Assembly: GCF_013122565.1 (NCBI RefSeq)
Contig: NZ_CP053258.1
Origin: Escherichia coli
GTDB lineage: Bacteria; Pseudomonadota; Gammaproteobacteria; Enterobacterales; Enterobacteriaceae
Length of the DNA: 64,000 bases
Strand: one strand, 5' to 3'
Position numbers and translations under genes: made by a program. Numbering within the stretch: position 1 is the stretch's first letter; every line of letters starts with the position of its first letter. Positions 44,811-45,085 of the stretch are shown one piece after another. The notes below the pieces were generated by a model. It had not been told where the DNA came from and ran no database searches. It saw only the letters and a list, made by a program, of their open reading frames with translations.

Positions 44811-44909
44811 ATCACACTCTGGTGGGTAATTATGATTATTAAAAGCAAACCCTCATAAATACTATAGACGGGACGGGATGAAAGTGGGAGTAAAATCAGA
44901 TAACTACGA

Positions 44910-44993
44910 TCAGGAAAGATAAAAACGGGCGGCAATCAGTGCGCATAAAATAAGGATGATAAGAATGAACTCAAAGCGATAACGGCCCACCAT
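44910..44993 (-). CDS. ydgU: 27-aa hydrophobic small protein YdgU
   Basis: my manual translation gives MVGRYRFEFILIILILCALIAARFYLS, matching my recollection of YdgU; below the track's size cutoff. Confidence 0.6.
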   Translation of the reverse strand: MVGRYRFEFILIILILCALIAARFYLS

Positions 44994-45085
44994 ACTACCC
45001 TCCGCTAAAGGCGGTGCTAAACGTTACCCGCTTAGCACCGTAATTTTCAGGCGCGAGGGGGCGCGCCAGCATTACTGTTGAAAAC

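Follow-up and report, generated by a model that had tools for sequence, protein, structure and literature searches.

Between the acid-shock gene asr and the peptidase gene ydgD of Escherichia coli lie a short hydrophobic open reading frame and two inverted repeats. The locus raises the question of whether the small frame is a gene, how it comes to be transcribed, and what the repeats do between it and asr. All coordinates are those of the window, a 64,000-nucleotide stretch of E. coli DNA (contig NZ_CP053258.1) whose orientation is the reverse of the MG1655 numbering. Reading along the minus strand, one meets ynfM (47071..45818), then asr (45086–45394), ydgU (44910..44993) and ydgD (43989..44810); beyond ydgD, mdtJ and mdtI lie on the plus strand. 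The region 44811–45085 is exactly the intergenic region of ydgD and asr, ydgD starting at 44810 and the asr stop codon ending at 45086. Read in the sense of asr, it consists of a 92-nt asr–ydgU spacer that carries two hairpins, the ydgU coding sequence (27 codons and a stop), and a 99-nt ydgU–ydgD spacer, all on the minus strand. asr, the first gene of the asr–ydgU operon, was identified by its annotation, a Pfam Asr match and a score of 99.2 bits against the NCBIfam model acid_shock_Asr (cutoff 50), and its product is an acid-shock periplasmic protein. ydgD encodes a trypsin-like serine peptidase, as judged from Pfam Trypsin matches, annotation and synteny. The 801 bases around ydgU have a match of at least 95% identity in 5422 of 5426 complete E. 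coli genomes.

Two side observations concern the asr end of the locus. The asr frame continues upstream without a stop to another ATG at 45421 (45395–45421, minus strand), from which the product would be 111 aa long, against 102 aa from the annotated start. Between ynfM and asr, on the plus strand at 45665–45769, there is a 34-aa hydrophobic ORF (MNPFIWVLIILMTLDALRELAGASSILGWLLTLV) that is oriented divergently to asr and located upstream of its promoter region. It scored 64 bits against NCBIfam NF033695, 'KPN_01571 family protein' (cutoff 35), and is annotated in some RefSeq E. coli genomes and absent from the MG1655 annotation.

The 27-aa frame starts with ATG and encodes the product MVGRYRFEFILIILILCALIAARFYLS. 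A Shine-Dalgarno (SD) sequence, GGAGGG, is found at 44998–45003 (minus strand), 4 nt before the ATG; a GGAG-type SD occupies the same place in most species examined, and the canonical SD of this gene has been remarked upon previously (PMC13425233). The presence of a 27-aa ORF is in itself no evidence for a gene, given that the surrounding 3-kb stretch is overlapped by 52 ORFs that are 20 aa or longer. The case for ydgU rests instead on conservation, on a family model, and on published experiments. YdgU scored 70.3 bits against the NCBIfam model small_YdgU (NF052476, cutoff 24) and 74.5 bits against PRK14758 (NF011341, cutoff 66), and both models aligned residues 1–27 to profile positions 1–27. 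The gene is annotated as b4601 in MG1655, RefSeq labels its product either 'small membrane protein YdgU' or 'hypothetical protein', and the NCBI pipeline placed a CDS at this locus in every genome listed, mostly under the latter name alone. Compared with YdgU/SamT of E. coli K-12, this is the same gene with the same neighbors, asr and ydgD, and the same 92-nt spacer. Twenty-six of the 27 residues are identical to those in MG1655; the sole difference, A21 here and T21 in MG1655, is a conservative substitution in the helix and nothing of substance. An earlier note, made from the letters of this DNA, had named the hydrophobic single-helix frame at 44910–44993 as ydgU, between asr and ydgD, and the ORF list, the annotation, the family models and the hydropathy profile all agree with that naming. 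Its remark that such a frame is missed by standard size cutoffs is outdated, given a K-12 locus tag, an NCBI CDS and a dedicated model.

To survey conservation, we took one genome per species and anchored the scan on YdgD, which yielded 80 loci from Escherichia, Citrobacter, Kosakonia, Kluyvera, Buttiauxella, Cedecea, Erwinia, Pantoea, Mixta and other genera. An intact in-frame ydgU homologue of 25–29 aa was found in 78 of them. It lies ~100 nt upstream of ydgD in nearly all 78, the exceptions being two Mangrovibacter loci, and has asr upstream of it in 75. Column entropies at codon positions 1, 2 and 3 were 0.83, 0.36 and 1.36, respectively (22-codon core, 71 distinct nucleotide versions); the third positions are the most variable, a pattern that argues for a protein under purifying selection. 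When the 78 YdgU sequences were aligned on the core motif, E8 and C17 were invariant and R4 was nearly so. The hydrophobic core comprises residues 7–21 (best 15-residue window, Kyte-Doolittle mean 3.06), with R4 and R6 on its N-terminal side, which fits a single N-in helix. Both conservation of the frame and a transmembrane segment had been named in the earlier note as checks, and both came out in favor of the gene; conservation of samT, as ydgU is also called, has been reported as well (PMC13425233). Short ORFs are abundant by chance, and the frame might be one of them, the conserved element being only RNA or DNA. We give this reading a negligible probability, since it is at odds with the codon-position pattern, with an SD and a length kept in 78 of 80 species, and with the family-model score; published ribosome profiling, tagging and genetics have already refuted it. 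By every feature testable in sequence, the ORF is the known gene ydgU, a member of the YdgU/SamT family. At two of the 80 loci, those of Intestinirhabdus alba (L011) and Tenebrionibacter intestinalis (L068), a ydgU homologue was not detected; the former keeps asr and ydgD. In the two Mangrovibacter loci (L065 and L066), ydgU and ydgD are separated by an additional copy of asr, which has a canonical terminator of its own.

We then considered how ydgU is transcribed. An exact match to the sequence that we take to be the RstA-box consensus, TACATNTNGTTACA (TACATATCGTTACA), lies on the minus strand at 45498–45511, 104 nt upstream of the asr ATG. No other site in the 64-kb window matches with one mismatch or fewer (0.16 expected by chance), and the box is also present at Escherichia, Citrobacter and Franconibacter loci. 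A sigma-70 promoter scan of 44600–45700 called nothing. The genes for the corresponding two-component system are in the same window, ~10 kb from ydgU and on the minus strand: rstA at 33978–34697 (NCBIfam RstA, 485 bits, cutoff 330) and rstB at 32673–33974 (NCBIfam RstB, 833 bits, cutoff 478), RstB being the reported target of SamT. In Franconibacter pulveris and F. helveticus, asr is absent and an intact ydgU is followed by ydgD (L021, 2191–2399; L022, 2207–2398), and both species have an exact RstA-box consensus ~120 nt upstream of ydgU. Franconibacter represents a natural 'asr deletion' in which the peptide has been kept under a presumed RstA-dependent promoter, and this fits the reported ability of SamT to act independently of Asr.

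Experiments on K-12 in the literature provide the evidence for translation, membrane location, co-transcription, RstB binding and feedback. Ribosome profiling, a check that the earlier note had proposed, had been published with a positive outcome: at pH 4.4, ydgU footprints rose by log2 9.2 and its RNA by log2 12.4, which places it among the most induced genes, and the same study assigned ydgU to the transcription unit of asr (PMC10746267). Tagging, likewise proposed, placed GFP-YdgU at the membrane, or cell periphery, in a study of low magnesium that also cites earlier epitope tagging of YdgU; in that study, induction came from the region upstream of asr, and promoter activity directly upstream of ydgU was negligible (PMC11429745). 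In a 2026 paper, ydgU was renamed samT, northern blots showed that asr and samT are both induced at acid pH in an RstA-dependent manner, and binding of RstA to the asr promoter was demonstrated (PMC13425233). According to the same paper, samT alone was enough at pH 5 to bring a Pasr reporter back under negative feedback, this feedback was lost in RstA or RstB phosphotransfer mutants, and Asr is a positive modulator of RstB-RstA independently of SamT. SamT also gave a strong two-hybrid signal with RstB, in an assay that used overproduced fusions and in which weaker SamT signals were seen with PhoQ and EnvZ as well (PMC13425233). ydgU and its feedback role on RstB are thus already known.

What the published work on ydgU, asr and samT that we found does not describe is the hairpin element in the spacer. 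On the asr-sense RNA, the asr stop codon is followed by 18 nt, hairpin 1, 9 nt, hairpin 2, CCUUUAGC, GGAGGG, UAGU and the AUG of ydgU. The earlier note had seen inverted repeats at about 45008–45062; both are present, and that range falls slightly short at the upper end, which is at 45067. Hairpin 2 (45012–45040, minus strand) has a 12-bp stem and a 5-nt loop. Its arms, CGGTGCTAAACG and CGCTTAGCACCG, occupy 45012–45023 and 45029–45040 and are complementary at 11 of 12 positions, the odd position forming a G-U pair on the asr-sense RNA. The folding energy is –21.1 kcal/mol (z = –4.9), and none of 200 shuffles folded as well. We aligned hairpin 2 in 17 sequences from Escherichia, Citrobacter, Kosakonia, Phytobacter, Pluralibacter and Kluyvera. 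Standard pairs filled 95% of the pair cells, against 30–49% when the 3' partner was slid by 1–3 columns. Five pairs had changed on both sides, and the covariation score was reached by none of 500 shuffles. One pair is U-A in E. coli, U-G in E. whittamii and Escherichia sp. E1V33, and C-G in Citrobacter and others. This record of substitutions indicates that hairpin 2 is a selected RNA structure. Two other identities were considered for the element. A DNA operator palindrome is unlikely in view of the compensatory changes and of G-U pairs that occur on the asr-sense strand only, where alone they can function. A dispersed repeat of the REP/BIME type was rejected: the asr–ydgU spacer is single-copy (present in 5422 of 5426 complete E. 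coli genomes, with a median of one copy each), the sequence of hairpin 2 occurs once in the window, the hairpin sequences are found only here within it, and a permissive Rfam scan of 43500–46500 on both strands returned no known RNA family. The spacer is at least 99% identical in 4328 of the 5422 genomes and has no annotated feature.

Upon comparison with relatives, the position of hairpin 2 proved to be that of an intrinsic terminator. In E. coli, the stem is followed by CCTTTAGC (45004–45011, minus strand), a decayed T-tract with 3 T in 8 bases, whereas the same tail position reads TTTCTTTA or TTTTTTTT in relatives. Erwiniaceae, Buttiauxella and Cedecea have a different stem at this site, ACACCCGG...CCGGGTGT, and Pseudescherichia has CAGCGCCCG...CGGGCGCTG; in all of these, a T-run comes directly after the stem and then the SD. 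We computed a d'Aubenton-Carafa-type terminator score, d, whose absolute values are rough because the formula was combined with modern energy parameters (ViennaRNA); on this scale, d exceeded the threshold of 0 at the hairpin 2 position in 52 of 75 distinct loci (median 12.8) and in just 1 of 150 random control windows from the same loci. By contrast, d was negative in all Escherichia sequences (–19 to –42; –34.3 in the window) because their T-run is reduced to CCTTTAGC or CTTTTAGC. A simple terminator scan did not call hairpin 2 either. The hairpin thus retains the stable GC-rich stem-loop of an intrinsic terminator and lacks the T-run. The Escherichia stem is nevertheless the longest and most stable of all, with 12 bp against a core of 7–9 bp in relatives. 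In loci with a canonical terminator, 17–23 nt lie between the end of the stem and the ATG (18 nt in the window). Such a gap leaves no room for a promoter, so in all these species ydgU must depend on read-through. Neither asr nor ydgU has an entry in the Term-seq tables of PMC7815308, which come from growth conditions believed to be non-inducing for asr.

How, then, does hairpin 2 act in E. coli? The earlier note had suggested that the repeats may terminate asr transcription. That suggestion is apt for the site of hairpin 2 in most relatives, where a canonical terminator stands; it does not carry over to Escherichia, where the T-run is missing, the scan made no call, d is about –34 and asr and ydgU are co-transcribed, and nothing supports a terminator role for the GC-rich palindrome of hairpin 1. 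A rival reading would make hairpin 2 an efficient terminator, asr monocistronic, and ydgU dependent on a promoter of its own. The original asr study reportedly described a short transcript of ~450 nt, a length consistent with RNA ending near the hairpins. We nonetheless regard an efficient terminator as very improbable: the gap between stem and ATG is only 18 nt, there is no T-run, reporter activity directly upstream of ydgU is negligible, and induction tracks the asr promoter and RstA, so that published reporter and northern data already contradict it. Since the asr promoter drives transcription of both asr and ydgU, hairpin 2 is not a full stop, and its sub-threshold score fits that co-transcription. 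It is probably a leaky attenuator or a stabiliser of RNA 3' ends, and the comparison with relatives suggests a role in setting the ratio of the two products. As the E. coli hairpin scores below the terminator threshold, however, it may be without effect on transcription.

Among these readings, the one that we put forward tentatively, and regard as possible rather than probable, is that the Asr:SamT balance is set by the efficiency of a terminator 17–23 nt before the samT start codon. The position of this terminator would be conserved across Enterobacteriaceae and Erwiniaceae while its sequence turns over, and Escherichia would have re-tuned the balance by letting the T-run erode while keeping and lengthening the stem, and may have added a second hairpin with a C-rich loop able to mask the samT ribosome-binding site. 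An alternative that we hold to be possible to much the same degree is that hairpin 2 does not terminate in E. coli at all and serves as a 3' barrier to exonucleases, stabilising an asr-only RNA derived from a cleaved asr–ydgU transcript. Asr output relative to the peptide would then be raised after transcription, not during it. Such a barrier would profit from a stem that is very stable (–21 kcal/mol) and longer than in relatives, and the loss of the T-run is in keeping with it; moreover, the stem still covaries within Escherichia and Citrobacter, which suggests selection without terminator features. On the other hand, a textbook terminator at the same site in relatives makes termination the simpler ancestral role, and a barrier is compatible with weak termination.

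The masking element invoked above brings in hairpin 1, the GC-rich palindrome (GGCGCG-CCCCCT-CGCGCC in the minus-strand sense; 45050–45067), whose arms, GGCGCG and CGCGCC, lie at 45050–45055 and 45062–45067. Its folding energy is –11.2 kcal/mol (z = –2.8), a value matched by 4 of 200 shuffles. Outside Escherichia, hairpin 1 has this sequence only in a single Citrobacter strain; a second Citrobacter carries TGGCGT-CCCCC-ACGCCA, in which the bases of the stem differ and the C-rich loop is the same. When the read-through RNA is folded to minimum energy, the ydgU SD is paired with the C-rich stretch of hairpin 1. One may imagine a long-range structure, with hairpin 2 at its tip, in which the SD and first codons of ydgU are taken up by the C-rich loop of hairpin 1 and its flank. 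Translation of ydgU would then be held down until something, such as ribosomes completing asr, opened the structure. For the spacer and the start of ydgU, the minimum-energy fold reached –49.5 kcal/mol, against –39.5 kcal/mol with local pairs only. The predicted probability that the SD is unpaired was 0.00–0.02 in five Escherichia species and one Citrobacter and ~0.2–0.5 in most other genera, although Kosakonia oryzendophytica likewise had a value of 0.0. The differential translation of asr and samT, which such masking would bear on, has been posed as a question (PMC13425233). However, the energy of the hairpin 1–SD duplex is not significant and is unremarkable for such GC-rich segments (–30.5 kcal/mol, shuffled mean –24.8, z = –1.6; 72 of 1000 shuffles did as well). 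Furthermore, most genera, as well as one Citrobacter amalonaticus strain, lack hairpin 1. The Escherichia sequences are too alike for a covariation test, and translation of ydgU is heavy at pH 4.4. On balance, masking of the SD by hairpin 1 is an unlikely addition to whatever hairpin 2 does.

The downstream boundary of the operon was also inspected. No terminator was found after ydgU, and the ydgU–ydgD spacer folds no better than its shuffles (z = +1.07). The same spacer contains a motif with conserved spacing, CTCCC-N18-CTATAGT (44861–44890, minus strand), which occurs once in the window against 0.08 expected by chance. CTATAGT was found in 66 of 70 unique ydgU–ydgD spacers and the exact 18-nt spacing in 56 of the 70, and across Enterobacteriaceae and Erwiniaceae CTATAGT always lies 47–61 nt before the ydgD ATG. 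With its –10-like TATAGT preceded by C, the motif is probably ydgD's own promoter; its invariant CTCCC is unlike a sigma-70 –35 element, and the sigma-70 scan did not call it. A Term-seq RNA 3' end has been mapped inside ydgD, at ~44694 on the minus strand, 116 nt into the gene (MG1655 position 1672076), at the end of a T6 run, CCCTGTTTTTT, and it appears in two listed sample tables (PMC7815308 supplement). This 3' end suggests that the 5' region of ydgD is transcribed independently and ends prematurely. The translation efficiency of ydgD is raised at pH 4.4 (log2 2.16; PMC10746267, Table S4).

Taken together with the published work, the account that we favor runs as follows. ydgU has no promoter of its own and is transcribed from the RstA-activated, acid-inducible asr promoter, RNA polymerase having to read through hairpin 2, which ends just before the ydgU start codon. 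The peptide, with its short basic N-terminus (R4 and R6) and one hydrophobic helix, inserts into the inner membrane. SamT is reported to bind the sensor kinase RstB and, at acid pH, to lower phosphotransfer to RstA, which makes the loop one of negative feedback (PMC13425233); Asr acts separately as a positive modulator. Hairpin 2 would derive from an intrinsic terminator still present at the site in most relatives, in which the terminator would keep the peptide far scarcer than the very abundant Asr. In Escherichia, erosion of the T-run would leave weak termination at most, and the hairpin may mainly protect the 3' end of asr-only RNA. As a whole, that is, for a samT expressed from the asr promoter through a decayed-terminator hairpin and damping RstB, we consider this account very likely to be right.

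The arrangement resembles several known systems in part. MgrB is a 47-aa protein with its own PhoP-dependent promoter. Like SamT, this small protein crosses the membrane once and belongs to the regulon of its own two-component target; by binding the sensor kinase, PhoQ, it inhibits that system in a negative feedback (Lippa and Goulian, 2009, as cited in PMC13425233). MgrB-like control, by which a gene is placed under the two-component system whose kinase its product inhibits, is what we find here, as judged from the exact RstA box upstream of asr, the absence of a promoter-sized gap before ydgU, and the RstA dependence (PMC13425233). The likeness is functional, and the families are probably unrelated. 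Only YdgU-specific NCBIfam models matched YdgU. Unlike mgrB, samT is the second gene of its operon and lies behind a hairpin, and the first gene of that operon acts positively on the same system. In the Salmonella ugtS-ugtL operon, as in asr-samT, the controlling two-component system is itself modulated by two products of the operon, one positive and one negative; there, UgtS blocks UgtL, whereas the effects of Asr and SamT do not depend on one another (Salvail et al., 2022, as discussed in PMC13425233). As to the hairpin, intra-operon attenuators offer a parallel, in that a stem-loop stands between co-transcribed genes and the downstream gene is reached only by read-through. An example of an intrinsic terminator that serves as such an attenuator is the one between rplL and rpoB. 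The likeness extends to the relatives, which have a GC stem and a T-run at the exact spot of hairpin 2. Unlike these attenuators, hairpin 2 of the window has a T-run in remnant form and a score below the terminator threshold.

With regard to ydgU itself, our findings add no new biology because the result has already been published (PMC13425233): ydgU is one more tiny membrane peptide that feeds back on a sensor kinase, in this case within the acid-responsive and virulence-linked RstB-RstA system. The modest addition made here is the comparison of the spacer hairpin, a positionally conserved terminator before the peptide gene that is weakened in Escherichia. It offers a testable handle on how the Asr:SamT ratio is set, a point that the authors of PMC13425233 left open.
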